From the NCBI GenBank assembly GCA_049679965.1, contig JBAUGX010000220.1, positions 33,583 to 97,582 on the forward strand: 64,000 nt of DNA, written 5' to 3'. Position numbers and translations under genes: made by a program. Of this stretch, positions 14,402-37,911 are shown one piece after another. Origin of the DNA: Vicinamibacterales bacterium. Its GTDB lineage: Bacteria > Acidobacteriota > Vicinamibacteria > Vicinamibacterales > CAVVIG01. Each line of letters begins with the position of its first letter. Within the stretch, counting starts at the first letter, position 1. The notes beneath the pieces were generated by a model. It searched no databases, had not been told where the DNA came from, and saw nothing but the letters and a program-made list of their open reading frames with translations.

Positions 14402-15100
14402 ATGCCCGCACGCATCCTGGTCGTCGAGGACGATCCCGACATCGCCGAGCTGGTCGCCCGCTACCTCGACAAGGCTGGCTACACCACGACGCGTCTGTCG
14501 TCGGGGCGTGAAGCGCTCGACGCGGTCCGTGCGAAGCCGCCGGATCTGATCGTCCTCGATCTGATGCTGCCTCAGATGGACGGGCTCGAGGTGTGCCGCG
14601 CGCTCCGGGCGAACGACAAGACCGCCGCCATCCCCATCATCATGCTCACCGCTCGATCCGAAGAGGCCGAGCGCATTGTCGGCCTCGAGATGGGCGCGGA
14701 CGACTATCTGGCCAAGCCCTTCAGCCCCAACGAACTGGTGGCGCGCGTGCGGGCGCTGCTCCGCCGGGCGCAACGCATCGTACCGGTTTCGGGCCCCTTG
14801 ACCTACGGCTCGATCGCGGTCGATTCCGAGCGGCACACGGTGTCGTTGGAAGGTCGAGACGTGACGCTAACGGCCAAGGAGTTTCTCCTGCTCGAGTACT
14901 TGCTCCAGCATCGCGGACGCGTCCTGTCGCGCGATATTCTGCTCGAGGAGGTCTGGGGCTATCGCTATACCGGCGGAACCCGAACGGTTGACGTGCACGT
15001 GCGCCGCCTGCGCGAGAAGCTGCCGCTGCTGGCCGAGGCCATCGTGACCGTCAAGCAGTTCGGCTACAAACTCCTCGATCACCCGGCCGCGGACCGATGA
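14402..15100 (+). CDS. phoB: OmpR/PhoB-family response regulator (likely PhoB)
   Basis: A receiver domain ([14 protein letters not shown]) plus a winged-helix output domain. The gene is coupled to the kinase gene and lies adjacent to phoU-pst. Confidence 0.8.
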
Positions 15101-16854
15101 CCAGGGGCTTTCAAGCCAAGTTCTTCCTCGCCGCCGTCTCGTCGGCCATTGTCGCGCTCATCGTGGCCGGGACGCTCTTCGCGACGATGATGCGCGGACA
15201 GATCGACCAGCAGATCGAGGCGACGCTCGTCGCCGAGGCCCGGCTGGCGGCAGAGCTGATCGAGCTCGCGCCCTCGCTCTCGACCGTCCCCGATCTTGAC
15301 GAAGTCGCCGATCGGATTGGGCAGCGGGTTGGGGCTCGCGTGACCTTGATCGCCGGCGATGGTCGCGTGATGGGCGACTCGTCGGAGCCGCCCGCAGGTG
15401 TGGCGGCGATGGACAATCACGCCGGGCGACCGGAAGTGGTCGAAGCGCGCGCCTCCGGGCTCGGCCACGCGCGCCGCCACAGCGACACCCTCAAGATCGA
15501 CATGTTGTACGTGGCCGTCCCGGTTCGGCACCCGGCGATCGCGTTCGTCCGTGTCGCGCTTCCGCTGACCGATGTCGGTCAACAGCTGCGGCCGGTGCTC
15601 ACGGTGACCCTCACGTCGCTCGCGATCGCCTTTATCGGCGCGGCGACCATTGCGTGGCTCTCGTCAGCCAGAATCGGTCAGCGCGTTCGCGGGGTGGCCG
15701 ACCTCGCCCGCCGCTACCGGAGCGGCGACCTGACCCCGCCGCGGATCGACTTTGGCGACGATGAGATGGGCGCCGTCGCACGGGCGCTCGACGAGTCGGT
15801 GCAGGAAGTCGGGCGCCGCCTCGCCGAGCAGGCGCGCGACCACGGCCGGATGGAGGCGATTCTCGCCGGCATGGTCGAAGGCGTCATCGTCGTAGATCCG
15901 CAGGGGCGGCTCCAGCTCGCCAACCAGGCCGCGCAGCGGATGCTGAAGCTCGACGCGCTCGCCCTGGGCCGGCCGTATGTGGAGACCATCCGGCACCCGG
16001 CGATTGCCGAACTGCTGGCGGCAGGGCTCTCGGGCCGCACGCCCGACGCCTTGCAGTTCACTCCCCCGCGCGACTCGTCGCGCGCCATCATCGCGAGAGC
16101 AGCGCCCGCGTCTCCAGACGCGGCGCACGGCGCGGTCGTCGTGATGCACGACATCACAGAGCTCAAGCGCGCCGACCAGATCCGCCGCGACTTCGTCGCC
16201 AACGTGTCGCACGAACTGCGCACGCCACTGACCGCCATACGCGGGTATGTCGAGGCGTTGTCGGATGGGGACGGTGACCCCGAGGAACATCGCCGCTTTC
16301 TGGCCATCATCACGCGCCACACCGAGCGCATGGAGCGACTGGTCAAGGACCTGCTGCGGCTGGCCCGGCTCGACGCCGGACAGGAAACGCTGGACATCAT
16401 CGGCTGCGATGCGCGGGCGCTCGCCCAGGCCGTCATCGCCGATCTCTCGATGGCCCTCGCCGAGCGTCACCAGAGAGTCGAGGTGGCCGTCGCGCCGGAT
16501 GCCGAGACGGTTCGGGGCGATCTCGGCAAGCTGCACGACGCGCTGCGGAATCTGGTCGCCAACGCGGTCACCTACGCGCCCGAGCACACCACGATTCGGA
16601 TCGAGGCCCGCCGAGCTGACGGCCGGGTCGCCATTGCCGTCTCGGACGAAGGACCAGGCATTCCCGAGGAAGATCTGCCGAGGGTGTTCGAGAGGTTCTA
16701 TCGCGTGGACAAGTCGCGCGCGCGCGATCCCGGAGGCACCGGTCTGGGGCTGGCGATCGTCAAGCACCTGATCGAGCTGCACGGTGGCGATGTGCGCGCT
16801 GAGAATCGCGCAGAGGGAGGAGCGCGTTTTACGTTGACACTCCCGTCGTCTTAA
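15097..16854 (+). CDS. phoR: PhoR-like sensor histidine kinase (TM-HAMP-PAS-HisKA-HATPase)
   Basis: H-box [14 protein letters not shown] and ATPase motifs [12 protein letters not shown]. The start overlaps the phoB stop. Confidence 0.8.
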
Positions 16855-16900
16855 CTTTTTAGTTTTGACTTTTTCGTTCTAACTTTTGACTTCTACGTTC
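16852..16900. repeat. Seven heptanucleotide units (TAACTTT TTAGTTT TGACTTT TTCGTTC TAACTTT TGACTTC TACGTTC) filling the phoR/phoU convergent gap
   Basis: Read directly. The tract is T-rich on the + strand and spans from the phoR stop (16852-16854) to the phoU stop (16893-16895). Confidence 0.75.
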
Positions 16901-17552
16901 CTCCTGTCTGATGCCTGACGTCCTCGCCCTTGACCAGATAAATCACTTCCTCGCAGATGTTCACCGCGTGATCGGCGATGCGCTCGAGCGCGCGCGCCAG
17001 CAGGATGAGACTCATGCAGCGCTTGACCATCTCGGGGTCGTCGGTCCGATCGGTCAAGAGGTCCTTGAACGTCTGCCGGTTCAGCGAGTCCACCTCGTCG
17101 TCCAGCTTGACGACCTGCTCGGCCTTCTGCACATCTTCCTGGTCGAACGCCTGGAGCGCGTCGTGAACCATCTGGCAGGTGATCTCGGTCATCCGCGACA
17201 GGTCCTTCAGGGGGCGGGGCGGGGGATCGGATATGAACATCTCGACGTACTCGCAGTTGTTCACTGCGTGGTCGCCGATACGCTCCAACTCGGTGTTGAT
17301 CCGCACGACCATCAACAGGAACCGCAGATCCTTCGCGGTCGGCGTGTAGATGGTGATGAGGCGGATCGCTTCACTGTCGATCTCGATCTGAAACCGGTCC
17401 AGTTTTTCCTCGGCGGCCAGCACTTCCGCGATGATCGCGCGGTCGCGCGTCACGAGCGCACTGGAGGCCCATGCCACCATGCGCTCGGCCAGCGCGGCCA
17501 TCTCCATCAGGCGGGCCTTGACGCCCTTCAGTTCCTGCTCAAACTTGATCAT
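16893..17552 (-). CDS. phoU: Phosphate signalling regulator PhoU (copy 1)
   Basis: A two-repeat PhoU fold with paired E(R)IGD motifs (LERIGDHAVN and LERIADHAVN). Downstream of pstB. Confidence 0.9.
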   Translation of the reverse strand: MIKFEQELKGVKARLMEMAALAERMVAWASSALVTRDRAIIAEVLAAEEKLDRFQIEIDSEAIRLITIYTPTAKDLRFLLMVVRINTELERIGDHAVNNCEYVEMFISDPPPRPLKDLSRMTEITCQMVHDALQAFDQEDVQKAEQVVKLDDEVDSLNRQTFKDLLTDRTDDPEMVKRCMSLILLARALERIADHAVNICEEVIYLVKGEDVRHQTGGT

Positions 17553-17564
17553 GCCTGCACTCCT

Positions 17565-18356
17565 CTAACCATATCGGCCTTCCACGTACATTTCCGTCTC
17601 CTTGTGCGTGGGTTTCAAGAAGACGTCCACTGTCGGCCCGTGCTCAATCAACTCTCCGAGCAGCATGAAGATGCACTCGTCGCTGATCCGGCGGGCCTGC
17701 GCCATGTTGTGGGTCACGATCACGATGGTGAAGCGTCCTCGCAGTCCGTCCATCAGCCGCTCGATGGCGGCGGTGCCCTGAGCGTCGAGCGCTGAGCAGG
17801 GCTCGTCCATCAGGATGACGCTCGGCTTGAGCGGGAGCAGGCGGGCGATACAGAGCTTCTGCTGCTGTTCGAGCGTCAGGTGCGTCGCCTTGTGGTGCAG
17901 GATGTCCTTCACGGCGTCCCACAAGGCGACCTCCGTCAGCGACGACTCCACCAGCTCGTCGAGTTGACGCCGTGTCAGCGCGCGTGCGCCGGCGTGTACC
18001 CGAAGCCCGAACACGATGTTCTCGTAAATGGAGATCGGGAGCGGGTTCGGCCGCTGGAAGACCATGCCCACCGCCTTGCGCAACTCGCCGAGGCTCACGT
18101 CCGCGTCGTAGATGTTCTTGTCCAGTATCCGGACCGTGCCCGTGGTCTTCACGTTGCCGTATCGCTCGTTGAGGCGGTTGAGACTGCGCAGAAATGTCGT
18201 CTTGCCGCAGCCCGAGGGGCCAATCAGGCCGGTGATCAACCCTTCCCGGATCTCGACGGACACGTGCTTGAGCGCCTGGAAGTCTCCGTACCACAGACAC
18301 AGGTCCTCGGCCGAGATGGTGTACCGCACCGAAGACGTCGCCTCGGTCCCGCTCAT
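17565..18356 (-). CDS. pstB: PstB-type phosphate ABC ATPase with a degenerate signature motif (LTLEQ instead of LSGGQ)
   Basis: ATG 18356 overlaps the upstream stop (ATGA). Walker A GPSGCGKT, Q-loop MVFQ, Walker B ILMDEP and H-loop VTHNM are intact. The signature reads HLTLEQQQKLCIARL. Confidence 0.85.
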   Translation of the reverse strand: MSGTEATSSVRYTISAEDLCLWYGDFQALKHVSVEIREGLITGLIGPSGCGKTTFLRSLNRLNERYGNVKTTGTVRILDKNIYDADVSLGELRKAVGMVFQRPNPLPISIYENIVFGLRVHAGARALTRRQLDELVESSLTEVALWDAVKDILHHKATHLTLEQQQKLCIARLLPLKPSVILMDEPCSALDAQGTAAIERLMDGLRGRFTIVIVTHNMAQARRISDECIFMLLGELIEHGPTVDVFLKPTHKETEMYVEGRYG

Positions 18357-19123
18357 CCGAAGTGCCCTCGGACGTAGTCGAACGTCAGACGCTCGGCAGG
18401 ATGCTCCGAGAACATGTGCTCGGTGGGGCCCACTTCGATCAGCGTGCCGTCGTTGAGGAACGCGACGCGATCCGCGAGCCGGCGGGCCTGCTGCACCAGG
18501 TTGGTCACGAGCACGACGGTCATCTGCTGCTTGAGCTCGAGGAGCACGTCCTCGATCTTCATGGTCGTGACCGGATCGACGGCGATCGAGAACTCGTCGA
18601 GGCACAGAATCTCCGGCCGGTGCGACAGGGCCCTGGCGATCGTCAGGCGCTGCTGCTGCCCCCCGGAGAGTCGAGTGCCGAGCAGCTGCATGCGGTCCTT
18701 GACCTCGTCCCAGAGCGCCGCGTGCCGGAGACAGGTTTCGACGAGCGCGTCCAAATCGTCCCGGTGGTTGAGACCGGCCATTCGCGGCGCGTACGCCACG
18801 TTGTCGTACACCGACAGCGGGAGGCCGACCGGCAGCGGGAACACCATGCCGATGCGGCGCCGCAGACTGAACACGTTCGCCATCTGGAAGACGTCTTCGC
18901 CGCCGACGAGCACCTCTCCGCTGACCCGCGCGCTCGGCGTGAAGTCGATCGTCCGGTTGATGCACTTGAGCAGGGTCGTCTTGCCGGAATTCGCCGGGCC
19001 GATGATCCCGAAGATCTCGTGGCGCGGCATCTCGAGCGTCACGCTCTTGAGGGCAACTTTCCGGCCGTAGCTCACCGACACGTTTCGAAACTCGATGTGG
19101 GGATTCACGGCGCCGGTTACCAC
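18353..19123 (-). CDS. Second PstB-like ABC ATPase with intact LSGGQ but altered Q-loop, post-Walker-B and H-loop
   Basis: The candidate GTG start at 19123 overlaps the pstA stop (GTGGTAA). Walker A GPANSGKT. MVFPLP is Q to P, LSGGQQQR is intact, LCLDEF replaces LDEP, and VTNLV is H to N. Confidence 0.8.
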   Translation of the reverse strand: MVTGAVNPHIEFRNVSVSYGRKVALKSVTLEMPRHEIFGIIGPANSGKTTLLKCINRTIDFTPSARVSGEVLVGGEDVFQMANVFSLRRRIGMVFPLPVGLPLSVYDNVAYAPRMAGLNHRDDLDALVETCLRHAALWDEVKDRMQLLGTRLSGGQQQRLTIARALSHRPEILCLDEFSIAVDPVTTMKIEDVLLELKQQMTVVLVTNLVQQARRLADRVAFLNDGTLIEVGPTEHMFSEHPAERLTFDYVRGHFG

Positions 19124-20022
19124 CGCTTGCGAGACCGCAGGTACACGCGAAACCCGATCGAGAGCAGGTTGACGCTGATGACGAGCGCGATGAGGACGAC
19201 GGCCGTGCCGTACTGCAGGGCCTCGGACACGCCGGTGACCTGGGTCGAGATGGTGAACAGGTGATACGAGAGGGCCATGCAGCGATCGAAGAGCCCGTAG
19301 GGAAGAAACGCCGCGAGTCCCCGATCCGGCACCGAGACGTAGAACACCGCGCCGGTGAACAGGATCGGGGCCGTTTCGCCAGCCGCCCTGGACACTTGGA
19401 GAATGACGCCGGTCAGGATGCCGCTGATCGCGTTCGGGAGCACAATCGTGCGGATCGTCTGCCAGCGGCTCGCCCCCATGTTCCAACATGCCTCTCGGAA
19501 CGACTGCGGGACCGCCGCCAGGGCCTCCTTGGTGCTCGTGATGATGACCGGCAGCGTCATGACGGCCAGCGTGAGCGAGGCGGCCAGGACGGAGCGGCCG
19601 ATGCCCGCGAACAGCACGAAGGCGCCAACGCCAAACAGCGCGTGGACGATGCTCGGCACGCCGGCGAGGTTGACCACCGCGAGGGTGACCAGCCGCGTCC
19701 ACCAGTTCTCGGCGGCGTACTCGTTGAGGTAGACGCCGGCCAGCACGCCGATGGGGGCGGCGACCGCCAGCGAGATGAAGACGAGGTAGAAGGTGCCGAC
19801 GAGTGGCGCCCAGATCCCGCCCGACGTCATGTACGTCTGGGGGTTCTGGGTGATGAAGGCCCATGACAGCACGGGCCACGCCTTCACGACCAGGGTGGTC
19901 AGGATGGCGATCAAGGGCAGGACGAGCAGCACCGTGACGCCTCCGAGCAGCGACGCGACCAGCCGCTCGACGAGCACCTTGCGACGCTCCACCGCGCCGG
20001 CCGTGAACCGCCCGTTAACCAT
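19117..20022 (-). CDS. pstA: Phosphate ABC transporter permease PstA (system 1)
   Basis: A six-TM permease with the EAA-type loop. ATG 20022 overlaps the pstC end. Confidence 0.85.
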   Translation of the reverse strand: MVNGRFTAGAVERRKVLVERLVASLLGGVTVLLVLPLIAILTTLVVKAWPVLSWAFITQNPQTYMTSGGIWAPLVGTFYLVFISLAVAAPIGVLAGVYLNEYAAENWWTRLVTLAVVNLAGVPSIVHALFGVGAFVLFAGIGRSVLAASLTLAVMTLPVIITSTKEALAAVPQSFREACWNMGASRWQTIRTIVLPNAISGILTGVILQVSRAAGETAPILFTGAVFYVSVPDRGLAAFLPYGLFDRCMALSYHLFTISTQVTGVSEALQYGTAVVLIALVISVNLLSIGFRVYLRSRKRW

Positions 20023-20923
20023 TCTGCTTTCCGCGCACACCCTTGACCACCAGGTCGGCGGTCAAGTTGACGGCAAACGCCATGAGCATCAGCAGCGTGC
20101 CGATGACGAACAGCACGCGGTAGTGATCGCCGCCCTCCACCGATTCTCCGAGCTCGGCGGCGATCGTGGCCGTCAGCGTGCGGACCGGATCGAGCAGGCT
20201 GTGGGGAATCTGGACCGAGTGGCCGGTGGCCATCAGCACCGCCATGGTCTCGCCGACCGACCGTCCGATGCCGAGCAGGGCTGCCGCGAGAAGGCCGTTT
20301 TTGGCCGCCGGCAACAGGACCTTGTAGACCACCTGCCAGCGGCTGGCGCCGAGCGCGAGGGCCGCCTCGCGATACGTGTCCGGCACGGCTTTGAGCGCAT
20401 CCTCGCCGACCGACATGATGATCGGGACGCTCATCAGCGCCAGGATGATGCCGCCGTTGAGGATGTTGATGCCGATCGGCGCGCCCGTGAGCGCGATCAA
20501 GAGAGGGTTGAGCACCATGACGCCAATGAACCCCCAGACGACCGAGGGAATGGCTGCGAGCAGCTCGATAACGATCTTGAGGGTCTCGCGGACGCGCGGA
20601 TGGCAGAACTCGGACACGAAGATTGCCGCGCCGAGGCCGGCCGGCACCGAGAGCAGCATCGCCAGAGCGGTGACCGATGCCGTGCCGGCCAGCAGCGCCA
20701 GGACGCCGTACTGCGCCTGGATCCTGGAATCGGGCCGCCAGTTCACGCTCGTGAAGAACTCCCCCAGGTCGAGCGCGCCGAACAACATCGGGGCGCCCTC
20801 GCGGAAGACGAAGAAGAAGATCGCGAAAACGAAGAAGATCGCGCTCCACCCACAGAGGCGGATGATCACCTCCACCAGCGGCTCCGCGAGACGACTCAGG
20901 CGGGGAGCTATGGCGTGACGCAT
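20015..20923 (-). CDS. pstC: Phosphate ABC transporter permease PstC (system 1)
   Basis: ATG 20923 lies inside ORF 20015-21124. Typical PstC sequence. Confidence 0.85.
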   Translation of the reverse strand: MRHAIAPRLSRLAEPLVEVIIRLCGWSAIFFVFAIFFFVFREGAPMLFGALDLGEFFTSVNWRPDSRIQAQYGVLALLAGTASVTALAMLLSVPAGLGAAIFVSEFCHPRVRETLKIVIELLAAIPSVVWGFIGVMVLNPLLIALTGAPIGINILNGGIILALMSVPIIMSVGEDALKAVPDTYREAALALGASRWQVVYKVLLPAAKNGLLAAALLGIGRSVGETMAVLMATGHSVQIPHSLLDPVRTLTATIAAELGESVEGGDHYRVLFVIGTLLMLMAFAVNLTADLVVKGVRGKQNG

Positions 20924-20942: not shown

Positions 20943-21854
20943 CTACTTGTTGACAGCCGGGGCGGGGACGAACCCGATGTCCTTGAGGACCTGCTGGCCC
21001 GCTTCGCCGAGCGTCCAGTCGATGAATTCCTTGGTCGGCCCGGTAGGCGTGCCGCGCGTGTACAGATACAGCGGCCGAGCGATGGGGTAGGTCTTGTCGA
21101 GTGCGCTCTCCACGGTCGGCGCAAATCCCGGCTCGCCTTTCTTCTTCGAGATCTTCAGCGCGCGCACGCCAGGCATGGCATACGCCATCCCGCTGTAGCC
21201 GATGGCGCACGGCGTCCGGGACACCAGTGCCACGACGTCCTTCGAGCCGCTCTGATCGATCGAGCCGAGCCGGAACTCGCGTGTTGTTCCGAGGACCGCC
21301 TCGCGAAAATAGACGTAGGTGCCGGAGTTGTTCTGGCGGCCGACGCGGATGATCTCGTCGCTGGCACACGCCGTGTTCTCGATGCCGGCCTGCGACCATT
21401 TGACCAGCTGTCCGCCGTCACCGTAGATCTCCGCCAACTCTTCGAGTGAGATCGTCTGAACGGGATTGCCCTCATGGACGTACACGGCCAGTGCGTCCAG
21501 TCCGACCACGAATCCCCTGGGCTCCGCGCCAGCGGTCTTCACGACCCGTGCGATCTCTTCCGCCTCCATCTCCCGGCTGGATGCGGCAATGTCGAGGATC
21601 CCGTCGATGAGGCCGGCGATCCCCACGCCAGATCCTCCGCCTGCGACCTGGATCGAGACGTCCGGCTTCACCTTCCTGTAGTTTTCTGCCCAGGCCTGAT
21701 CCAGGTTGACCATCGTGTCCGAGCCCGTGAGCCGAATCACGACGCTGGTGCTCACGGCCGGTCCGGACGTCGTGGCCGGCGGACTCGAGCATGCGATGCC
21801 GACCAGCGCGCCGCCGACCAGACAGAGAGCGGTGACCGTTCTTACCGTTGACAT
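20943..21854 (-). CDS. pstS: Phosphate-binding lipoprotein PstS (system 1)
   Basis: ATG 21854 is preceded by GGAGAA. Lipobox VGIACS. The motif LTGSDTMVNL...GGGSGVG marks a PstS-family PBP. Confidence 0.85.
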   Translation of the reverse strand: MSTVRTVTALCLVGGALVGIACSSPPATTSGPAVSTSVVIRLTGSDTMVNLDQAWAENYRKVKPDVSIQVAGGGSGVGIAGLIDGILDIAASSREMEAEEIARVVKTAGAEPRGFVVGLDALAVYVHEGNPVQTISLEELAEIYGDGGQLVKWSQAGIENTACASDEIIRVGRQNNSGTYVYFREAVLGTTREFRLGSIDQSGSKDVVALVSRTPCAIGYSGMAYAMPGVRALKISKKKGEPGFAPTVESALDKTYPIARPLYLYTRGTPTGPTKEFIDWTLGEAGQQVLKDIGFVPAPAVNK

Positions 21855-21900
21855 GCGTTCTCCTCGCGGGGAATCAGATGGAATGATCCGGGGCGGGATT

Positions 21901-21919
21901 GTAACAGATTCGTTTACAC
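21901..21919 (-). promoter_or_regulatory. Pho-box-like site between pstS (system 1) and glgC
   Basis: The minus strand reads GTGTAAACGAATCTGTTAC, with half-sites GTGTAA and CTGTTA (12-bp phase here). It lies 46 nt upstream of the pstS ATG and 30 nt upstream of the glgC ATG. Confidence 0.45.
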
Positions 21920-23229: not shown

Positions 23230-23366
23230 CCCCCAGCCCCAATTTGGCCGCAGCGGCGTGTCACGCCGAGGATCCCTATTTGTAACGCGGTCGTCGCATC
23301 GCAGACACGGTGGCGTCGCGGCGTCCTCCTAGACTGGCTCGGTTCCACTTCAAGGAGGATTGCTGC

Positions 23367-25007
23367 ATGCGTGTACGAACGACAACACTGGCTCTCGCGC
23401 TCGTCGCGGTCGGGGCCTTCCCCGCCGCCGCGCAAGTCACACCCGGCACCGTGCCGGGAACGTTCCAGGGACCGACCAGCTCGCAGACGCCGTTCGTCGT
23501 CCCCGCCGCCGACGGCTGGGAGGTGGTCTCGCTCATCTCGGCAGGCGACCCCGCCAAGAACAACGGCTACCGAATGGTCGGGATTCCCGACGGCCTCGGC
23601 GCCGTGGCCGGCAAGTTCGAGGCGGGCCGATGGGGCCGCTACGTCGCCGACGAGAAGTACATGACGGTGTTCATGAATCACGAGATCCCGGCCGGTGGCG
23701 GCATCGCGCGCGCGCACGGCCAGAATGGTGCCTTCGTGTCGCAGTGGACCATTCAGCTGAACACCCTGCAGGTCAAGGCGGGCGAGGATCTGATTCAGGA
23801 TGTGTACACGTGGGACACCGCCAGCGGGCAGTACGTGTTCAACCCCACGGCGCAGTTCAACCGGTTCTGCTCAGCCGACCTGGCCGAGTTCACGGCGTTC
23901 TACAACCCCAGAACAGGCAAGGGCTTCTACGGCCGTCTCTTCATGAACGGCGAGGAGGCGGGGAACGAGGGCCGGGCGTTCGCCCATGTGATTACTGGCT
24001 CGGGAAAGGGCGACTCCTATCAGCTGGCCTCGCTTGGACGCCTCTCCTATGAAAACAGTGTCGCCAGCCCCAACTCTGGCGACAAGACCCTCGTGGTCAG
24101 CATGGACGACAGCACGCCTGGCCAAGTGTATGTGTACCTCGGCAACAAGCAGAAGACCGGCAATCCGGTCGAGCGTGCGGGTCTCGTCGGCGGGAAGCTC
24201 TTCGGCATCAAGGTGACCAACGGTGGCACGAACTACTCGGGCGCCGCCGTGACCCGCGAGAACAACGGCCCGATCAACGGGGCGTTCTCGCTCGTCGAGG
24301 TCTCCGACGCGGCCACGGGGACGGGCGCAGTGCTGCAGACGACGAGCACGACCAGGGGCATCACGGAATTCGCGCGCCCGGAGGATGGGGCGTGGGACAC
24401 GCTCAACCCGCGCGTTTTCTACTTCGTCATCACCGGTGCCACCATTGACGGCAAGCTGCAGTCGGCGCGCCTCTACAAGCTGACCTTCAACAGCATCACC
24501 AACCCGACCGGGGGCACGATCGAACCCGTGATCGACCGTGCAGACCTGCTGCCTTCAACGACGGGCTTCGCGCAATTCGACAACCTCACAGTCGACAGTG
24601 ACGGCTTCGTCTTGATTCAGGAAGATCCCGGCAATCAGGCGTATCTCGCGCAGACATGGCGAGTCAATCCCGCGACGAAGACCGCCACCGCGATCTTCCA
24701 CTCCGACGCGGCACGGTTTGGGTCGCCGGCGCCGGCCCCCTTCAACCTTGACGAAGAAAGCTCCGGCATCATCGAAGTGACGGACATCGTCAGGTCCGCA
24801 CGCTGGTACGAGCATGGCCGGCGGTATTTTCTGGCCGACATGCAGGCGCACTACGCCATCTCAGGCGAGTTGTTCGAAGGCGGCCAGCTCTACCTCCTCG
24901 CCTCGCCAAAGGCGCCGCGTCGACACTTCGATGACGACGACGACGATCGCGGCCGCGACAACGGTGGGTGGGACAACGACCATCACGGGCACGACGACGA
25001 GGATTAG
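23367..25007 (+). CDS. Secreted beta-propeller protein, DUF839/PhoX-like (putative phosphatase) with an acidic His-rich tail
   Basis: AAGGAGGA precedes ATG 23367. Sec signal ending AAAQ. The motifs YRMVGIPDGLGA, EFARPEDGAWD and FDNLTVDSDGFVLIQEDPG resemble PhoX-family blades. The tail is DDDDDDRGRDNGGWDNDHHGHDDED. Confidence 0.45.
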   Translation: MRVRTTTLALALVAVGAFPAAAQVTPGTVPGTFQGPTSSQTPFVVPAADGWEVVSLISAGDPAKNNGYRMVGIPDGLGAVAGKFEAGRWGRYVADEKYMTVFMNHEIPAGGGIARAHGQNGAFVSQWTIQLNTLQVKAGEDLIQDVYTWDTASGQYVFNPTAQFNRFCSADLAEFTAFYNPRTGKGFYGRLFMNGEEAGNEGRAFAHVITGSGKGDSYQLASLGRLSYENSVASPNSGDKTLVVSMDDSTPGQVYVYLGNKQKTGNPVERAGLVGGKLFGIKVTNGGTNYSGAAVTRENNGPINGAFSLVEVSDAATGTGAVLQTTSTTRGITEFARPEDGAWDTLNPRVFYFVITGATIDGKLQSARLYKLTFNSITNPTGGTIEPVIDRADLLPSTTGFAQFDNLTVDSDGFVLIQEDPGNQAYLAQTWRVNPATKTATAIFHSDAARFGSPAPAPFNLDEESSGIIEVTDIVRSARWYEHGRRYFLADMQAHYAISGELFEGGQLYLLASPKAPRRHFDDDDDDRGRDNGGWDNDHHGHDDED

Positions 25008-25193: not shown

Positions 25194-25850
25194 GTGACGC
25201 TTCCCAGGAAGGCGGCAAGCGAGTTCATCGGGACGGCTCTGCTCCTGGCGGCAGTGGTCGGCTCGGGAATCATGGGCGAGCGACTCGCCGGCGGCAACGT
25301 CGCGGTCGCGCTCCTGGCCAACGCGATCGCAACGGGTGCCGTCCTGATCGCGCTCATCCTGACCTTCGCGCCGATCTCTGGCGCACATTTCAATCCCCTC
25401 GTGACGATCGCGGACGCCAGTCAGGGCGGGGCCTCCTGGCGCGACGTCCTGGCGTACGTGCCGGCACAGGTCTTCGGCGCCGTGGCGGGCGTAGCGTGCG
25501 CCAACACGATGTTCGGTGAGCCGGTGTTTGCCTGGTCCAGTCGCGCGCGCACGGGATTCCCGCAGGCGCTCAGCGAGGCTGTGGCCACCTTCGGCCTACT
25601 TTCGGTGATTGGAGGCTGTGCGAAGCGACGCCCGGACGCCGTAGCTTTCGCGGTCGGCGCGTACATCACCGGGGCGTACTGGTTCACCTCATCGACGTCG
25701 TTTGCCAATCCGGCCGTCACGGTCGCGCGAGCGCTGACGGATACGTTCAGCGGCATTCGCCCAGCCGACGTCCCAATGTTCCTGCTCGCGCAGGTGGTCG
25801 GCGCAACAGCGGCCACGCTCTACTTCCGCTGGCTCTTCTCGAAAGACTGA
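25194..25850 (+). CDS. MIP-family channel (AqpS-like putative arsenite/glycerol channel)
   Basis: GTG start. The NPL (HFNPLVT) and NPA (FANPAVT) boxes are present. Lies immediately upstream of arsC. Confidence 0.75.
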   Translation: MTLPRKAASEFIGTALLLAAVVGSGIMGERLAGGNVAVALLANAIATGAVLIALILTFAPISGAHFNPLVTIADASQGGASWRDVLAYVPAQVFGAVAGVACANTMFGEPVFAWSSRARTGFPQALSEAVATFGLLSVIGGCAKRRPDAVAFAVGAYITGAYWFTSSTSFANPAVTVARALTDTFSGIRPADVPMFLLAQVVGATAATLYFRWLFSKD

Positions 25851-25856
25851 GGTCTC

Positions 25857-26360
25857 ATGGCTCACTACAACGTCCTGTTTCTTTGCACCGGCAACTCGGC
25901 GCGCAGCATCATGGCCGAAGCGCTCCTCAACTACTGGGGGAAGGGCCGGTTCACCGCGTTCAGCGCTGGAAGCCACCCGAAGAAGGAGGTCCATCCGCTT
26001 GCGCTCGACGTGCTGGAGAAGAATCAGCTCCGGATAGACGGTCTCCGAAGCAAGAGCTGGGATGAGTTCGCGACGCCGGGCGCGCCGCCTCTCCACTTCG
26101 TGTTCACCGTCTGCGACCGTGCGGCGGCCGAAGTCTGCCCGATCTGGCCGGGCCAGCCCATGACGGCCCATTGGGGCATCGAAGACCCGGCGGCCTTTGA
26201 AGGATCCGACGAAGACAAACGGCGGGCCTTTAACCGTGCGTTTCGGGAACTCGACGCGCGGATCAAGATCTTCACGAGCCTGCGCCTCGAGGCGCTCGAT
26301 CAGTTGTCCTTGAAGCGTCAACTGGACGAGATTGGCAGACAGCCGCGTGCGAAGGACTAG
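25857..26360 (+). CDS. arsC: Arsenate reductase, LMW-PTP (thioredoxin-coupled) type
   Basis: The P-loop VLFLCTGNSARSIMAE and downstream Cys residues typical of ArsC of the LMW-phosphatase family. Confidence 0.85.
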   Translation: MAHYNVLFLCTGNSARSIMAEALLNYWGKGRFTAFSAGSHPKKEVHPLALDVLEKNQLRIDGLRSKSWDEFATPGAPPLHFVFTVCDRAAAEVCPIWPGQPMTAHWGIEDPAAFEGSDEDKRRAFNRAFRELDARIKIFTSLRLEALDQLSLKRQLDEIGRQPRAKD

Positions 26361-28517: not shown

Positions 28518-29381
28518 CTAAGAGGTCAGCCCCTCGAGCTTGCGGGTGGCAAAGCGGGCGAGTAGCGAACAGATCAGCACGATCGCCACGAGGACGAGCG
28601 CGCCGGCCCACGCCTGTCGATGCCAATCCTCGTAGGGCGAGATGGCATAGGTGTAGATCTGCACGGTGAGGGACCCAATCGGCTGTGTCAGGCTGGTGGT
28701 GAAGAATCGATTATTGAACGACGTGAAGAGGAGCGGCGCTGTCTCTCCGGCGATGCGGGCCAGGGCCAGCACGACACCGGTAATGATTCCAGGGAGGGCC
28801 GCCGGCACCACGACGGTGAACACCGCGCGGGCGCGCGTCGCGCCGAGCGCCAACGCCCCCTCGCGCATCGTGTTCGGTACCAGAAGCAGGAGCTCTTCGG
28901 TCGTACGGGCGATGATCGGAATCATCATGATGCCGAGCGCCAGGCCGCCGGCCAAGGCGCTGAACTGCTTGAACGGCAGCACCGCAACGCCGTAGGCGAA
29001 CACACCGATGACGATCGACGGGACGCCATTGAGCGTATCGGCTGCGAAGCGCACCACGCTGGCCAGGGTGCTACCCGCGTACTCGGACATATACACACCG
29101 CTCATGATCCCGATCGGGATCGCGAACAGCGAACCGAGTCCGGTCAGCATGAGGGTGCCGACGATGGCGTTGGCCATGCCTCCGCCGGGCTCTCCAACGG
29201 GCGTCGGCATGCGTGTGAAAAAATCGAGGTTGACAGATTGAATGCCCTGGCCGATGACGAAGAACAGGACGAAGCCGAGCGGCACCAGGGCCGCCAGGAC
29301 GCACAACACGCAGAAGCCGACGAACATCGACGACAGGATCTTGCGTCGGATGGTTCGTCTGGCCACGTCAGCCCTCGTCAT
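28518..29381 (-). CDS. pstA: Phosphate ABC transporter permease PstA (system 2)
   Basis: ATG 29381 overlaps the pstC2 stop (ATGA). Canonical PstA sequence. Confidence 0.85.
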   Translation of the reverse strand: MTRADVARRTIRRKILSSMFVGFCVLCVLAALVPLGFVLFFVIGQGIQSVNLDFFTRMPTPVGEPGGGMANAIVGTLMLTGLGSLFAIPIGIMSGVYMSEYAGSTLASVVRFAADTLNGVPSIVIGVFAYGVAVLPFKQFSALAGGLALGIMMIPIIARTTEELLLLVPNTMREGALALGATRARAVFTVVVPAALPGIITGVVLALARIAGETAPLLFTSFNNRFFTTSLTQPIGSLTVQIYTYAISPYEDWHRQAWAGALVLVAIVLICSLLARFATRKLEGLTS

Positions 29382-30334
29382 GCCGCCGACTCCTCCGCGG
29401 GAACGACCGCGACCGGCGCGAGGCGTTTGGCTGGACGCGCCATGCTCCAAATCAGGACCCGCGACAGCCCATTGACGACGAGCGTGATGATGAACAGGAC
29501 GAGGCCGATCTCGACGAGCGCGTTGAGATACAGGTCGTCGGAGGCCTCGGTGAACTCGTTCGCCAGGACGGCCGCCATCGTGTGCTGCGGCGCAAACAGC
29601 GACGCGGACACCTGGGGGTTGTTCCCAATCACCATCGTCACGGCCATGGTTTCGCCAAGCGCGCGGCCGAAGCCCAGCATGACGGCGCCGATAATACCGG
29701 TGCGCGCGAAAAAGACCGCCGCGCGAATCGCTTCGAAGCGCGTGGCGCCCAGCGCATACGCACCCTCACGTTGCGCGACCGGCACCGACTTAAGCACCTC
29801 CCGCGCGACTGACGAGGTGAACGGCACGACCATGACCGCCAGGATCACGGCGGCCGTCAGCATGCCCACGCCGATCGGAGGGCCGGTGAAGAGCGGGACC
29901 TGCTTCAGCCAGTCCGGTGTCGCCACTTCGAGTGCCCGCACGGCCGGCACCAGGACAAAAATACCCCAGAGACCGTAGACAATCGAAGGAATCGCCGCGA
30001 GAAGTTCCGTCAGGAAGACCAGCGGCTGGCGCAGGCGGGCGGGCGCAAGCTCGGAGATGAAAATCGCAATACCGATGGCGACCGGGGTCGCCAGCAGGAG
30101 CGCGAGGACCGATGAGTACAACGTGCCCCAGATGAACGGGAGCGCGCCGAACTCGCCGGCGACCGGGTCCCAGATCTCAGTCCCCCAGAAGCCCAGGCCG
30201 AACTTCTGGATCGACAACATCGACTGGCGCACCAACTCGTAGCCGATCGCGAAAACGATCAGGACGAGCGCGAGGGCAAACGCGCCCGTCCCGATCCGGA
30301 ACCCGAGGTCTTTACCTTTACCGAACATGCCCAC
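29378..30334 (-). CDS. pstC: Phosphate ABC transporter permease PstC (system 2)
   Basis: Canonical PstC sequence lying between pstS2 and pstA2. Confidence 0.85.
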   Translation of the reverse strand: MGMFGKGKDLGFRIGTGAFALALVLIVFAIGYELVRQSMLSIQKFGLGFWGTEIWDPVAGEFGALPFIWGTLYSSVLALLLATPVAIGIAIFISELAPARLRQPLVFLTELLAAIPSIVYGLWGIFVLVPAVRALEVATPDWLKQVPLFTGPPIGVGMLTAAVILAVMVVPFTSSVAREVLKSVPVAQREGAYALGATRFEAIRAAVFFARTGIIGAVMLGFGRALGETMAVTMVIGNNPQVSASLFAPQHTMAAVLANEFTEASDDLYLNALVEIGLVLFIITLVVNGLSRVLIWSMARPAKRLAPVAVVPAEESAA

Positions 30335-30364
30335 TGATTTTATCCTGACGCGGGGACAAGGCCG

Positions 30365-31393
30365 TTATCCGATCTTGATCTTCGCCAGCGTGGCCATCTC
30401 GAGCTCCACGATGCTCGCCGGCAACGGTGCATAGCCCAGTTCCGTGGCGAACTTCTGACCGTCGGTCAGGGCCCACTTCATGAACTCCACCATCGTCCTG
30501 GACTGGACCTTGTCCTTCGGATTCTCATAGAGCAGGATCCACGTGAACGATGCAATCGGATACACACCGGGGCCCGGCGCGTTCACAATCGAGACGCGGA
30601 AGTCGGCCGGCATGGCTGCAGTCGCCGCCGCCGCCGCCGCCGTCACGGATGCCACCGAAGACTTCACAAACTCGCCGGCCATGTTCTGGACGCTGCCGTA
30701 GTTGATCTTGCTCTGCAGCGCGTAGATGAGCTCGACGTATCCGATCGAGCCCGGGGTCTGCGTCACCAGACCGGCCACGCCTTCGTTGCCCTTGCCGCCG
30801 ACGCCCGCCGGCCAGTTGACGGCCGTGGCGACGCCAACCCTCGTCTTCCACTCGGGCGATATCTTCGCCAGGTAGTCCACCCAGATGTAGCTCGTGCCCG
30901 AGGCATCGGACCGGTGAACAACGGTGACGGCGCTACCCGGAAAGTTGACGCCTGGATTCAGCTTCGCGATCGCCGGGTCGTTCCATGTGGTGATCTTGCC
31001 GAGGAAGATGTCGGCCAACACCTGTCCCGTGAACTTGAGCTCAACGTTGACACCCGGGATGTTGTAGATGGGGACCACGCCGCCAAGCACTGTCGGAAGA
31101 TGGTGCACTTTGCCGGCGGCAGCGACCAACTGGTCGCTGGTCATCGGGCCGTCGGTCGCCCCGAAGAACACCGTCTGGGCCGTGAGCTGGCGAATGCCGC
31201 CGCCCGATCCAATCGACTGGTAGTTAATCTGCACGTTCGGGTGCAACTTGTTGTACTCGGAGAACCACTTCGAGTAGATGGGATACGGGAACGTCGCGCC
31301 CGCTCCGTTGATCTGAATCGTCTGCGCGGCGACCGCGCCTGCCATGACCACGACCGCCGCGATCGTCGCGAGAACTTTGTGAATCGGCTTCAT
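30365..31393 (-). CDS. pstS: Periplasmic phosphate-binding protein PstS (system 2, E. coli-like type)
   Basis: ATG 31393. A signal peptide is followed by INGAGATFPYPIYSKWFSEY...SIGSGGG. Confidence 0.9.
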   Translation of the reverse strand: MKPIHKVLATIAAVVVMAGAVAAQTIQINGAGATFPYPIYSKWFSEYNKLHPNVQINYQSIGSGGGIRQLTAQTVFFGATDGPMTSDQLVAAAGKVHHLPTVLGGVVPIYNIPGVNVELKFTGQVLADIFLGKITTWNDPAIAKLNPGVNFPGSAVTVVHRSDASGTSYIWVDYLAKISPEWKTRVGVATAVNWPAGVGGKGNEGVAGLVTQTPGSIGYVELIYALQSKINYGSVQNMAGEFVKSSVASVTAAAAAATAAMPADFRVSIVNAPGPGVYPIASFTWILLYENPKDKVQSRTMVEFMKWALTDGQKFATELGYAPLPASIVELEMATLAKIKIG

Positions 31394-31416
31394 TGGAACA
31401 ACCTCCACTTAAGTTA

Positions 31417-31440
31417 GGGCGGACCCGACAGGGTCCGCCC
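31417..31440 (-). terminator. Perfect 10-bp GC hairpin between the porin gene and pstS2 (attenuator, processing or stability element)
   Basis: GGGCGGACCC gaca GGGTCCGCCC. On the minus strand it is followed by TAACTTAAG, a weak U-tract, so full termination is doubtful. Confidence 0.35.
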
Positions 31441-31447
31441 TGCATCC

Positions 31448-32719
31448 TCAGAAATTGAGCAACGCACGAATCGTGAACGTCTTGAACGTGGGTGTCGGAA
31501 GAAACGGACCGTTGGCGGTCAAACCCGGGTTGGTCTGCGTCGGGGCCGCCGTGCCGATCCCGCTGACGCCAACAAGCCCGCCGGTGGCATTGGGCACGCC
31601 CGGGCCCGTCGTGAGTCCGTCGAAGTCAAACATGATGGCCGTGGTCGCGCCGCCGGCCGGATGCGGGAACCAATACGCGATGCCGAGGACCACACGGTTC
31701 CGCTCCTGCTGCTCGAAGGTCACCGTGTTGGTGCCCGTCGTGACGGGAATCGCCGTGCTCCGGGTGTCGGGGACGAGGTGGTCGTATCGGACGAGTCCCT
31801 CCCACCCGAGGTTCCCGGCGCCTTGCTTCGGCACGGCCCAGATCGAGTAACCCTTGCCCTCCCGGTTGAAGGGGGTCCCGAGCGCCGTGCCCTGATCGTT
31901 GGCGATCATGTACTGGAACGCCGCGTTCACATACTGATGCTCGAACGTCACCGCGCCAATGAGTCGCTTCCGCTCGGAGTCCGTCTGGTAGCTGTCCTTG
32001 TCGTAGAAGACCGACGCACGCAAGCCGCGATAGAGCGGAGCCATCCTGGCAAACGGCCGGACCGTCACGCGAGTCCTCCACGCCTTCTGCTGGTTGGTCT
32101 CGGCCGCCTGGTAGTTCTCGCCGTTGTAGATGCCCGTGTGGACGTCGCCCCAGTTCGCCGGAAAGGTGTAGTGGAACGACGCGCCCCGGTCCGACGAGGA
32201 CAGATAGCCGCCGCTTCGCTCGCCGAACACGGTGCCCTGGAACCGATAGCGGTAGATGCCTTCCTCGAAGTCGATCCACGGCGTCTGCTGCTGCCCGAAT
32301 CGGACCCAGTTGGTTCGGCTGTTCTTGATCCAGTCGTCGAGGCTGAACTGCGCGTACGCGTACTTGATCCGCAACGGGTAACTGGTGCCGGCGACCAGGC
32401 CGGTGAGGTCCGGGCTGATCCGGTAGGAAATCAGGTGAGAGATGTTGCCGGTGACATTCAAGTACGTGCGGCCCACATTGAAGGCGCTTGGCGTGAAGTC
32501 CTGGCTGCAACCCGGGGTCGCCGCGCAATCAGCGGACGTGCCCTTCGGGCCGAGCATGTAGGTGTTGTCCAGGAACATCGTCATCCCGACCCGAAGGGAC
32601 TGCGTGTCGTCAGGCGGCACGAATCCGGCGGCCGGTGTGACCTGAGCGGATACCGTGGCCGCAAGGAACACCATCGGGGCAATCAAGGCAAAAGTGCGTC
32701 GCAAAGAAACCTCCTTCAC
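31448..32719 (-). CDS. Outer-membrane beta-barrel, putative phosphate-selective porin (OprO/OprP-like)
   Basis: Signal peptide ending SAQ, a Gly/Tyr/Asn-rich alternating sequence and a C-terminal F. It is the first gene of the pstS2C2A2 operon. The likely true start is TTG 32704, after AAGGAGG. Confidence 0.5.
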   Translation of the reverse strand: MKEVSLRRTFALIAPMVFLAATVSAQVTPAAGFVPPDDTQSLRVGMTMFLDNTYMLGPKGTSADCAATPGCSQDFTPSAFNVGRTYLNVTGNISHLISYRISPDLTGLVAGTSYPLRIKYAYAQFSLDDWIKNSRTNWVRFGQQQTPWIDFEEGIYRYRFQGTVFGERSGGYLSSSDRGASFHYTFPANWGDVHTGIYNGENYQAAETNQQKAWRTRVTVRPFARMAPLYRGLRASVFYDKDSYQTDSERKRLIGAVTFEHQYVNAAFQYMIANDQGTALGTPFNREGKGYSIWAVPKQGAGNLGWEGLVRYDHLVPDTRSTAIPVTTGTNTVTFEQQERNRVVLGIAYWFPHPAGGATTAIMFDFDGLTTGPGVPNATGGLVGVSGIGTAAPTQTNPGLTANGPFLPTPTFKTFTIRALLNF

Positions 32720-34366: not shown

Positions 34367-34431
34367 CCCCCTGCCATTCCTCGTAGGGTAACCGCCCGAT
34401 GTAACCGCTCCGCGCCGATGGCCTCATATCG

Positions 34432-34461
34432 GTGTGACGAATGTGTAAAATCCGTGTTAAA
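34432..34461 (+). promoter_or_regulatory. Triple Pho-box-like site centred in the GT2 / ppk1 divergent region
   Basis: GTGTGACGAATGTGTAAAATCCGTGTTAAA carries half-sites GTGTGA (34432), GTGTAA (34443) and GTGTTA (34454), exactly 11 bp apart. It lies 65 nt from the ppk1 ATG and 66 nt from the GT2 TTG. Confidence 0.5.
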
Positions 34462-34525
34462 TGAAGAGCCGGAAAGCCCTGCGGTCCGCGAGACGCGAAC
34501 TCCTCGCGGTACAATTCCGCGGGCC

Positions 34526-36619: not shown

Positions 36620-36664
36620 TATCCACCCCTTCCGGCCCGGGTCCCGTGCTGTCGCTACTTGTTC

Positions 36665-36704
36665 CGTTAACCCACATTTAACCCGGCAGACACGAGCCGT
36701 TAAC
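36665..36704 (+). promoter_or_regulatory. Phased GTTAAC-type Pho-box-like sites upstream of the orphan response regulator
   Basis: CCGTTAAC (36664), CATTTAAC (36675) and CCGTTAAC (36697) are offset by 11 and 22 bp. The last site ends 30 nt before ATG 36734. Confidence 0.4.
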
Positions 36705-36733
36705 TTGCCTGTCGTACGGTGGGCCATTCTGTC

Positions 36734-37447: not shown

Positions 37448-37471
37448 AATCTGCGGCGAGGAGCCATCCCA

Positions 37472-37906: not shown

Positions 37907-37911
37907 GGCGA

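Follow-up and report, generated by a model that had tools for sequence, protein, structure and literature searches.

Two adjacent PstB-like genes in a pstS-pstC-pstA-pstB-pstB-phoU operon, located on the minus strand of a 64-kb stretch of DNA (hereafter, the window) from a member of the Vicinamibacterales (Acidobacteriota) described as a soil bacterium, carry complementary changes in their ATPase motifs, and their products, the proximal P1 and the distal P2, most likely form the obligate heterodimeric NBDs of the PstS1-PstC1-PstA1 importer, with a single catalytic ATP site. We assign this reading a probability of roughly 75%; from the sequences of the two proteins and their relatives, we infer assembly of the heterodimer, hydrolysis at one site, and the role of the second, dead site.

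The placement of tandem PstB paralogues after pstS-pstC-pstA, as originally predicted, was borne out with its coordinates and motifs, on the minus strand throughout. P1 (18353..19123) consists of 256 aa and P2 (17565..18356; stop codon TAG at 17567-17565) of 263 aa; for both, the best family is TIGR00972 (PstB), matched across profile positions 2-248 of 248, with the next non-PstB family scoring below 140 bits, and both miss the curated equivalog cut-off of 343.2 bits (285 bits for P1 and 328.5 bits for P2). On the same strand, the operon further includes the permease genes pstA1 (19117..20040; TIGR00974, 250 bits, above the cut-off of 193) and pstC1 (20015..20923; TIGR02138, 275 bits, above the cut-off of 196), the gene for the phosphate-binding lipoprotein PstS1, of the ptsS_2 type (20943..21854; TIGR02136, 194.8 bits, cut-off 206.6), and, as the last gene, phoU1 (16893..17552; TIGR02135, 193 bits, above the cut-off of 130). 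The pstC1 ORF extends to 21124, with the likely start at the ATG at 20923, 20 nt past the pstS1 stop; pstS1 likely starts at the ATG at 21854, which is preceded by GAGGAG, and encodes a signal peptide (...LVGIAC/SS). The phoU1 ATG, with AGGAG ahead of it, lies 12 nt past the P2 stop. A putative Pho-box-like direct repeat, TGTAAACGAATCTGTTACA, was identified by sequence match at 21900..21918 (minus strand), which places it 46-64 nt ahead of the ATG of pstS1. The window contains a single copy, against 0 matches in shuffles; a search of the 64-kb window for a Pho box shared with other phosphate genes found none, the pstS1 repeat being unique. Genes for a phoB-like response regulator (14402-15100) and a phoR-like histidine kinase (15097-16854), both recognized from their translations on the plus strand, adjoin the operon (14402..16854), convergent toward its phoU1 end, and phoB/phoR homologues adjoin the P1-P2 pair in many other loci.

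The original prediction also had the genes joined by overlapping stop and start codons. This holds at the P2/P1 junction, where ATGA (18356-18353) combines the P2 ATG with the TGA stop of P1. At the P1/pstA1 junction, GTGGTAA is present (19123-19117), with a P1 GTG start overlapping the TAA stop of pstA, but the NCBI record starts P1 at a GTG 15 nt further downstream (251 aa), so that the overlapping start is plausible rather than certain. Translational coupling through these two overlaps would yield equal amounts of P1 and P2.

Motif positions were determined by phmmer alignment of P1 and P2 to E. coli PstB (PDB 9k3x_C), the top PDB match for both (E = 7e-63 for P1 and 5e-71 for P2). The P1 alignment is gap-free through all motifs, and that of P2 is interrupted once, by a gap of 3 residues that falls between the Q-loop and the signature and leaves the motifs themselves gap-free; P1 and P2 are 37% identical to each other. 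The substituted positions, in E. coli PstB numbering, are the Q-loop Gln98, Pro180, His210, and the signature Gly156/Gly157. P1 (all motif coordinates on the minus strand) retains a Walker A motif, GPANSGKT (18977-19000), and an intact LSGGQ signature (18656-18670, followed by QQR), but has Pro in place of the Q-loop Gln (MVFPLPVGLP; 18818-18847), DEF instead of DEP in Walker B (ILCLDEF; 18590-18610), Ile in place of Ser in the D-loop (SIAVD; 18575-18589), and Asn in place of the H-loop His (VTNLV; 18494-18508). P2 possesses canonical Walker A (GPSGCGKT), Q-loop (MVFQRP), Walker B (ILMDEP), D-loop (CSALD), and H-loop (VTHNM) motifs along with a degenerate signature, LTLEQ (17865-17879, followed by QQK). 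The alignments to E. coli PstB place the P1 Q-loop, DEF and H-loop changes and the P2 LTLEQ at the motifs to which they had been assigned, and the profile alignments likewise have LTLEQ at the signature and VTNLV at the H-loop, rather than outside these positions. Of the full catalytic set (Walker A, Q-loop Gln, LSGGQ, Walker B Asp-Glu and H-loop His), P1 thus misses the Gln and the His, and P2 the Gly-Gly of the signature.

In NBD dimers, the two subunits are arranged head-to-tail, so that each ATP site comprises the Walker side of one subunit and the signature of its partner, the backbone of which normally contacts the ATP gamma-phosphate. Given that P1 or P2 paired with itself would be defective at both sites, whereas P1+P2, alone among the P1/P2 combinations, rebuilds one complete site from the complementary lesions, an obligate heterodimer is the best reading; that P1, damaged in its other motifs, keeps LSGGQ without exception is understandable only if this motif completes the catalytic site of the partner. 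The catalytic site would consist of the P2 Walker A, Walker B, Q-loop and H-loop together with the P1 LSGGQ, and would hydrolyse ATP. The second site, formed by the Walker side of P1 and the L-x-L-E-Q of P2, would be non-catalytic, being devoid of both the Q-loop Gln and the H-loop His and having a carboxylate facing the gamma-phosphate contact. Each cycle of the pump would then consume one ATP. P1 probably still binds nucleotide, given that its A-loop Tyr, Walker A Lys/Thr, and Walker B Asp-Glu are kept. The claim that all lesions fall in one composite site stands for the Q-loop, H-loop, DEF and signature changes, which converge on one site and leave the other with all consensus motifs; the exception is the P1 D-loop Ser-to-Ile change, at the dimer center, which adjoins the consensus site and because of which this site may not be fully canonical in its behavior.

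The motif changes are fixed and do not represent decay, as indicated by their complete conservation and by dN/dS values between 0.04 and 0.25. Across 68 P1 orthologues, compared by columns in E. coli PstB numbering, the changes Q98P, K99L, P102G, P180F, S182I and H210N are each present in 100%, and K49 (100%), D178 (98%), E179 (98%) and LSGGQ (100%) are retained; across 67 P2 orthologues, G156L, G157E and R161K are each found in 100%, as are the intact Walker A, Q98, D178-E179, P180 and H210. The same motif states were observed in 120 close metagenome homologues of P1 and 120 of P2. Both genes evolve under purifying selection, with dN/dS of 0.05-0.25 for P1 and 0.04-0.12 for P2.

The pair is of ancient origin and occurs in many phyla. 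The best 68 genome matches were all P1-type; in all 67 of these loci with downstream DNA, the next gene is P2-type, in invariant order and across at least 8 phyla. PstA is encoded directly upstream of P1 in 66 of the 68 loci, and PhoU downstream of the pair in 50, about 60 loci having sufficient downstream DNA. The distance matrices of P1 and P2 correlate (r = 0.77, a value reached in 0 of 999 Mantel permutations); that is, the two genes co-evolve and their trees mirror each other. In a sister clade (class 2), the proximal copy shows Q-to-A and H-to-N changes with the signature kept in 119 of 120 matches (exact LSGGQ in 117, I/FSGGQ in two), and the distal copy has an LSxEQ signature (LSAEQ, LSLEQ, LSGEQ or LSPEQ) in all four loci, with the same polarity as in P1/P2. 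Hence the survey of orthologous tandems agrees with the original prediction: the lesions are paired to the same composite site in 67/67 class-1 and 4/4 class-2 loci. An NJ tree (500 bootstraps), which did not include B. subtilis or E. faecalis sequences, groups P1 with the class-2 proximal copies (84%) and P2 with the class-2 distal copies (67%), and the canonical tandems from Saccharofermentans (L073) and a Gemmatimonadetes MAG (L074) join the P1 or P2 clades in 0% of the bootstraps. Among the organisms carrying the pair is the gut bacterium Akkermansia muciniphila (L033), in which a six-gene phosphate cluster, Amuc_1302-1307, is co-induced (PMC11480725); this cluster presumably corresponds to the L033 locus.

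These patterns bear on the possibility that the paralogues act independently, one as a homodimeric motor and the other as an accessory or regulatory ATPase, as proposed for PstB1 and PstB2 of E. faecalis. Tandem pstB genes with unequal roles are known in that organism, where excess PstB2 can substitute for PstB1 (PMC12096839), and PstBA/PstBB of B. subtilis are another known tandem (PMC11466899); as in P1/P2, two adjacent, functionally non-equivalent pstB copies follow pstA in a pst-phoU operon. However, the Firmicute copies both keep Walker A, LSGGQ and the H-loop, which P1 and P2 do not, and all motifs are canonical in both E. faecalis proteins. With P2 paired to itself, both sites would have LTLEQ, and with P1 paired to itself, neither would have the Q-loop Gln or the H-loop His; furthermore, the invariant pairing, the mirrored trees, and the universal LSGGQ of P1 are unexpected of separate proteins, and the canonical tandems do not group with the pair. 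Independent function is therefore improbable. Redundancy of the Firmicute type was also considered and is ruled out by the motifs and the tree.

The window encodes a third PstB, pstB3 (41298-42170, plus strand), which, as originally predicted, proved to be canonical in all motifs, with a TIGR00972 score of 394.6 bits, above the cut-off of 343.2. It is located apart from any permease genes, between ppx (39448-41205, plus strand) upstream and phoU2 (42209-42895, plus strand) downstream. A second Pst set on the minus strand (28518..32719) comprises a porin O/P-like gene (31448-32719), pstS2 of the E. coli type (30365-31408; TIGR00975, 395 bits), pstC2 (29378-30334; TIGR02138, 292 bits) and pstA2 (28518-29450; TIGR00974, 291 bits). 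Because this set has no pstB of its own, pstB3 most probably encodes its ATPase. By motif logic, pairing PstB3 with either P1 or P2 would also restore one complete site, and PstB3 is encoded in the same window yet distant from permease genes, so that mixed dimers could be envisaged on one or both permease sets, with P1 and P2 as alternative modulators. This arrangement is quite unlikely: the pstS2-pstC2-pstA2 cluster offers PstB3 an obvious job, just one of the 68 loci (L029) has a canonical pstB no more than 8 kb from the pair, and P1 and P2 are translationally coupled and co-evolving.

The conserved Walker A Lys, Walker B Asp, catalytic Glu and A-loop Tyr of P1 would also fit hydrolysis at both sites, with the P1 changes reflecting lineage-specific alternative chemistry or an adaptation to TMD docking. 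We consider this quite unlikely, given that the Q-loop Gln and the H-loop His are lost at the same site, each in 100% of the sequences, that an acidic residue has been gained at signature position 4, where it blocks closure over ATP in CFTR, and that Walker B Asp-Glu has decayed to Asn-Arg (LCLNRF), in one P1 lineage only (L004 and P0241), as expected were catalysis dispensable. Pseudogenization or assembly artefact, for which the origin of the window from a MAG and frame breaks in two related loci (L008 and L068) could be invoked, is refuted by conservation and dN/dS and has a negligible chance of being correct, since hundreds of independent assemblies, representing several phyla, show the same residues, the P1/P2 frames are intact with dN/dS far below 1, and the frame breaks are limited to two 'MFD' MAG assemblies.

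Under the preferred reading of an obligate P1-P2 heterodimer, a striking feature of the dead site is the one invariant change in the distal subunit, the replacement of the second signature Gly with Glu (signature position 4), which is equivalent to CFTR G551E. In CFTR, the negative charge of G551E/D repels the gamma-phosphate and abolishes ATP-driven dimerization at that site (PMC4178940), and the invariant P2 Glu, by analogy, argues against canonical closure over ATP at the degenerate site, which therefore may not be an ATP 'glue' site. The likeness is limited to the acidic residue at the second Gly of LSGGQ: CFTR G551D/E is a disease mutation and disables the catalytic site, whereas the P2 Glu is fixed, selected, and located in the non-catalytic site. 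Slow hydrolysis may occur at the site on the Walker side of P1, given that 98% of P1-type sequences keep the catalytic Glu that follows Walker B, unlike the usual degenerate sites of exporters. The Q-loop also contacts the coupling helix of the permease, and part of its remodelling in P1 may serve the docking of this particular subunit to PstA or PstC instead of representing catalytic loss; comparison of the coupling-helix regions of PstA1 and PstA2, each aligned to E. coli PstA, revealed nothing distinctive in this respect. More speculatively, and on balance unlikely, the dead site might have been rebuilt, either with the Glu serving as a gamma-phosphate surrogate or latch against the P1 Lys, or by turning the site into an allosteric nucleotide or energy sensor feeding the PhoU/PhoR phosphate signal. 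In the latch version, the signature-4 Glu would oppose the P1 Walker A Lys with ADP bound or the site empty, and the P1-P2 interface would be held half-closed without the use of ATP while the importer cycles on a single ATP. If true, either version would establish a second type of degenerate site with a mechanism of its own, which arose in a type I importer and has persisted in the PVC group, Acidobacteriota, Gemmatimonadota and relatives.

The resemblance to heterodimeric ABC exporters with a degenerate site, such as TM287/288, TmrAB, TAP1/2, BmrCD, CFTR and MsRv1273c/72c (PMC7756269, PMC3971661), which had been part of the original prediction, is partial. As in the exporters, two non-identical NBDs are encoded together, here by adjacent overlapping genes, Walker-side changes in one subunit and signature changes in its partner meet at a single composite site while the second site is consensus, Asn or another residue stands in for the H-loop His, and the D-loops are asymmetric. 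However, the pair is not a copy of the exporter arrangement: the exporters are type IV systems with NBDs fused to TMDs, whereas P1 and P2 are free NBDs of a type I binding-protein-dependent importer, and loss of the catalytic Glu after Walker B, a hallmark of degenerate sites (PMC7544095), is typical of the exporters, in which the ATP 'glue' is kept, whereas P1 keeps the Glu and has lost the Q-loop Gln. In P1/P2, an invariant Glu of the opposing signature should repel the gamma-phosphate. The canonical PstB homodimer is that of E. coli PstSCAB (PDB 9k3x/9k3s; PMC12976172), with one NBD on PstA and one on PstC; P1 and P2 share its family, its length, 42-48% identity, and the pstSCAB-phoU operon logic, but there one gene yields identical subunits with two equivalent sites and here two genes yield one complete site. 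Among importers, the sugar and nucleoside transporters RbsA and NupO (CUT2 type) likewise have one of two ATP sites off consensus (PMC11466899), but these, which that source classes with the type II importers, have both NBDs in one polypeptide rather than in separate chains, the losses affect Walker A Lys or Walker B, and the proteins are unrelated to PstB.

A literature search, with most subscription journals outside its reach, found no prior description of degenerate PstB pairs, and the matched P1/P2 pair, present across many phyla including Akkermansia, is apparently previously undescribed. The number of ATP molecules that an ABC importer uses in each cycle, and the need for both sites to fire, have been debated for decades with engineered half-dead mutants of MalK and HisP. 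If our reading is true, the pair would represent a naturally occurring type I importer with one working site that has been stable in evolution; it occurs in cultivable organisms (such as Akkermansia muciniphila and planctomycetes), which makes the question directly testable, and the canonical Pst system with two sites that the genome also encodes offers a built-in comparison. Degenerate sites would then extend beyond exporters and fused NBDs, and could be built in an alternative way, with the catalytic Glu kept and an acidic signature. P1 and P2 fall below the PstB cut-off, and such proteins are tallied in genome surveys simply as 'PstB' (e.g. PMC12872454), so that inferences on Pst stoichiometry and copy number are off in these phyla.

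The two PstB-like genes lie in a six-gene phosphate operon on the minus strand, in the order pstS1 (20943-21854, likely start ATG at 21854), pstC1 (20015-20923), pstA1 (19117-20040), P1 (18353-19123), P2 (17565-18356) and phoU1 (16893-17552), where P1 and P2 denote the proximal and distal PstB-like genes and their products. The overlapping junctions of the original prediction hold, with GTGGTAA (19123-19117) linking pstA1 to P1 and ATGA (18356-18353) linking P1 to P2; phoU1 starts 12 nt past the P2 stop, behind AGGAG. A phoB/phoR pair (14402-16854) is encoded on the opposite strand. NCBI lists an identical P1 protein from a Vicinamibacterales MAG (Acidobacteriota), whose start is called 15 nt further in, at a GTG. 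PstS1 is a member of the ptsS_2 subfamily, which makes the whole of system 1 (PstS1-PstC1-PstA1 with P1 and P2) a divergent Pst lineage. Ahead of the pstS1 ATG, by 46-64 nt, lies TGTAAACGAATCTGTTACA, a Pho-box-like direct repeat found at one place in the window (21900-21918, minus strand); its TGT period is 12 nt vs 11 nt in E. coli. Adjoining the operon, a gene at 23310-25007 (plus strand) has a 565-aa product that looks secreted, matches PhoX alkaline phosphatase weakly (24 bits, at the cut-off) and ends in an Asp/His-rich C-terminal tail (DDDDDDRGRDNGGWDNDHHGHDDED). The MIP-family channel and low-molecular-weight phosphatase (ArsC-like) encoded at 25194-26360 (plus strand) may be an arsenic-handling pair, noteworthy because phosphate transporters let arsenate into cells.

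The best profile match of both P1 and P2, across the full profile length, is the PstB equivalog TIGR00972, with scores (285 and 328.5 bits, respectively) below the curated cut-off of 343.2, compared with 394.6 bits for PstB3, the third, canonical PstB of the window. Alignment to E. coli PstB (9k3x_C) using phmmer runs without gaps through every motif and places the changes at the expected positions. The motifs are GPANSGKT, MVFPLP, LSGGQ, ILCLDEF, SIAVD and VTNLV in P1 and GPSGCGKT, MVFQRP, LTLEQ, ILMDEP, CSALD and VTHNM in P2, and the original observation is borne out in full. P1 shares only 37% identity with P2, and each is nearer to canonical PstB (42-48%), so that their split is old.

In any ABC nucleotide-binding domain (NBD) dimer, ATP is held between the subunits, one contributing Walker A/B, the Q-loop and the H-loop, and the other the signature. 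The solved structure of E. coli PstSCAB follows this geometry in its PstB2 (PMC12976172). Two copies of P1 would thus make a dimer with neither the Q-loop Gln nor the H-loop His at either site, and two copies of P2 one with LTLEQ at both; one complete site would arise from P1+P2 only, combining the Walker side of P2 with the LSGGQ of P1. The overlapping stop and start codons are compatible with 1:1 production of the two proteins. Together with the conservation of LSGGQ, these features argue for an obligate heterodimeric motor with a single catalytic site, a reading to which we assign a probability of roughly three in four, its assembly and one-site hydrolysis being predicted from sequence. That LSGGQ is perfectly conserved in the otherwise crippled P1 is the strongest argument for P1 serving the catalytic site of its partner. 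Sequence and comparative evidence thus supports, with refinements, the heterodimer with one degenerate site proposed originally; the claim that all lesions map to one site was slightly too strong, given the Ser-to-Ile change in the P1 D-loop beside the consensus site.

Among 120 close P1 homologues, MVFPLP is present in 119, LSGGQ in all 120 and VTN in 111; LTLEQ is present in 118 of 120 P2 homologues, all of which have a canonical Walker A and Q-loop. Column statistics were obtained by aligning 68 P1-type and 67 P2-type orthologues with 16 canonical PstBs (E. coli numbering). Q98P, K99L, P102G, P180F, S182I and H210N each occur in 100% of the P1-type proteins (n = 68), which retain the A-loop Tyr20, Walker A Lys49, Asp178, Glu179 and the entire LSGGQQQRL, and G156L, G157E, R161K and A169P each occur in 100% of the P2-type proteins (n = 67), with a wholly canonical Walker side. 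Pairwise dN/dS ranges from 0.05 to 0.25 in P1 and from 0.04 to 0.12 in P2. P1 and P2 are, on this comparative record, functioning proteins and not copies in decay. The P1 gene of locus L068 (8001-8809) and the P2 gene of L008 (8784-9542) are each split over several frames; both come from 'MFD' MAG assemblies, and the breaks are therefore probably indel errors, not pseudogenes. In L004 (8001-8747) and protein P0241, the P1-type Walker B Asp-Glu has decayed to Asn-Arg (LCLNRF), with VSNLV or VSGQV as the H-loop; in this one lineage the non-catalytic site would have decayed further, which fits dispensable catalysis there.

Searching with P1 through GTDB, one genome for each species, yielded at least 80 loci, and the best 68 of those listed, a minimum count, were P1-type (57-82% identity). 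Among the matches listed, these were distributed over Planctomycetota (30), Verrucomicrobiota (17, including Akkermansia muciniphila), Acidobacteriota (9), Myxococcota and 'Deltaproteobacteria' (3), Gemmatimonadota (2), Lentisphaerota (2), Kiritimatiellae, a Rokubacteria-labelled MAG and a few others. In this survey of tandems, a P2-type gene, with the signature L-[TSQLP]-L-E-[QE], comes next in 67/67 listed P1-type loci having downstream DNA. PstA is directly upstream in 66/68 listed loci, and PhoU is downstream of the pair in 50 of the 68, about 60 of which have enough downstream DNA. The P1 and P2 clades each have 100% bootstrap support and their pairwise distance matrices are correlated (r = 0.77, reached by 0/999 Mantel permutations), indicating that the two genes have travelled and diverged together. 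A canonical pstB occurs within 8 kb of the pair in only one of the 68 listed loci (L029, 2885-3625, ~5 kb upstream on the same strand). Tandems with two fully canonical copies were observed in a Saccharofermentans MAG (L073, 7174-8729) and a Gemmatimonadetes MAG (L074, 7186-8741), neither clustering with the P1/P2 pair in the bootstrap tree; Gemmatimonadota therefore hold both kinds of tandem.

An exhaustive representative search yielded more PstB-like proteins with Q-to-A and H-to-N changes, one of which served as the next query. Both changes and an intact signature were present in 119/120 matches (LSGGQ exactly in 117, ISGGQ in 1 and FSGGQ in 1), and the proximal copy of this sister clade keeps DEP. 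All four loci with readable DNA, from metagenome contigs (pairs at L081 6001-7565, L082 6001-7534, L084 4001-5594 and L085 4001-5522), have the order pstS-pstC-pstA-proximal copy-second PstB, followed by phoU in two (L081 and L085); this order, phoU included, is also that of another locus that was listed without its DNA. The distal PstB of the four loci is canonical but for its signature (LSAEQ, LSLEQ, LSGEQ or LSPEQ), and the degenerate pair has the polarity of P1/P2 in 4/4. In neighbor-joining analysis, the sister proximal copies group with P1 (84% bootstrap) and the distal copies with P2 (67%), suggesting that the degenerate pair likely arose once. Replacement of the second signature Gly by Glu is the sole distal-subunit change that never varies over both clades.

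Degenerate sites are frequent in exporters, where they are usually marked by a missing catalytic Glu and keep ATP as a stable bridge (PMC3971661, PMC7756269, PMC7544095). In contrast, P1-type proteins retain this Glu in 98% of sequences and lack the Q-loop Gln, and P2, unlike exporter degenerate sites, places an invariant carboxylate in the signature opposite the P1 Walker side. The position is equivalent to that of CFTR G551D and G551E, which abolish ATP-dependent NBD dimerisation there via gamma-phosphate repulsion, an effect not shared by G551S or G551K (PMC4178940); by analogy, the dead site of P1/P2 may never close over ATP. Because the Glu is invariant, it seems to be under selection, perhaps, speculatively, as a gamma-phosphate surrogate.

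Firmicutes are known to carry tandem pstB genes; the two copies of E. faecalis have every motif intact, and PstB2 in excess can substitute for PstB1 (PMC12096839), whereas P1 and P2 have each lost motifs. B. subtilis PstBA/PstBB was modelled as a heterodimer in a study that notes degenerate sites in fused RbsA and NupO only (PMC11466899), and a 2026 survey of Akkermansiaceae counts the proteins described here simply as PstB (PMC12872454). The six-gene cluster Amuc_1302-1307 of A. muciniphila is co-induced (PMC11480725), which fits an expressed pstSCA-P1-P2-phoU operon under the gene-by-gene assignment that we infer. The literature search, which covered few subscription journals, gave no account of complementary degeneracy in PstB; an earlier mention may exist.

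A second Pst set on the minus strand (28518-32719) comprises a porin O/P-like gene, pstS2, pstC2 and pstA2, with pstS2 of the E. coli type (TIGR00975, 395 bits). No pstB was found after this set; the canonical pstB3-phoU2 lies 12 kb from it, directly behind ppx (ppx to phoU2 at 39448-42895, plus strand), and this split from the only canonical pstB is unusual in itself. The polyphosphate cluster at 33911-41205 encodes ppk, an OmpR-type response regulator, DUF6526, a histidine phosphatase, a CHAD protein and ppx; the first Pfam domain of ppk begins at residue 232, and its start codon is therefore probably over-called. Most probably, PstB3 powers PstS2C2A2. Mixed dimers, in which PstB3 would pair with P1 or P2, are weakened as an alternative, because the set without its own pstB gives PstB3 a probable partner.

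The P1+P2 pair would thus represent an ancient and widespread NBD heterodimer with a degenerate site, one that serves a type I importer and differs in build from the exporter cases. Such heterodimers are already known, and the importer setting and the different build would be what is new, a testable result that is moderately surprising for specialists in ABC transporters and phosphate uptake. If PstB3 powers PstS2C2A2, this genome would hold one-site and two-site Pst systems side by side.
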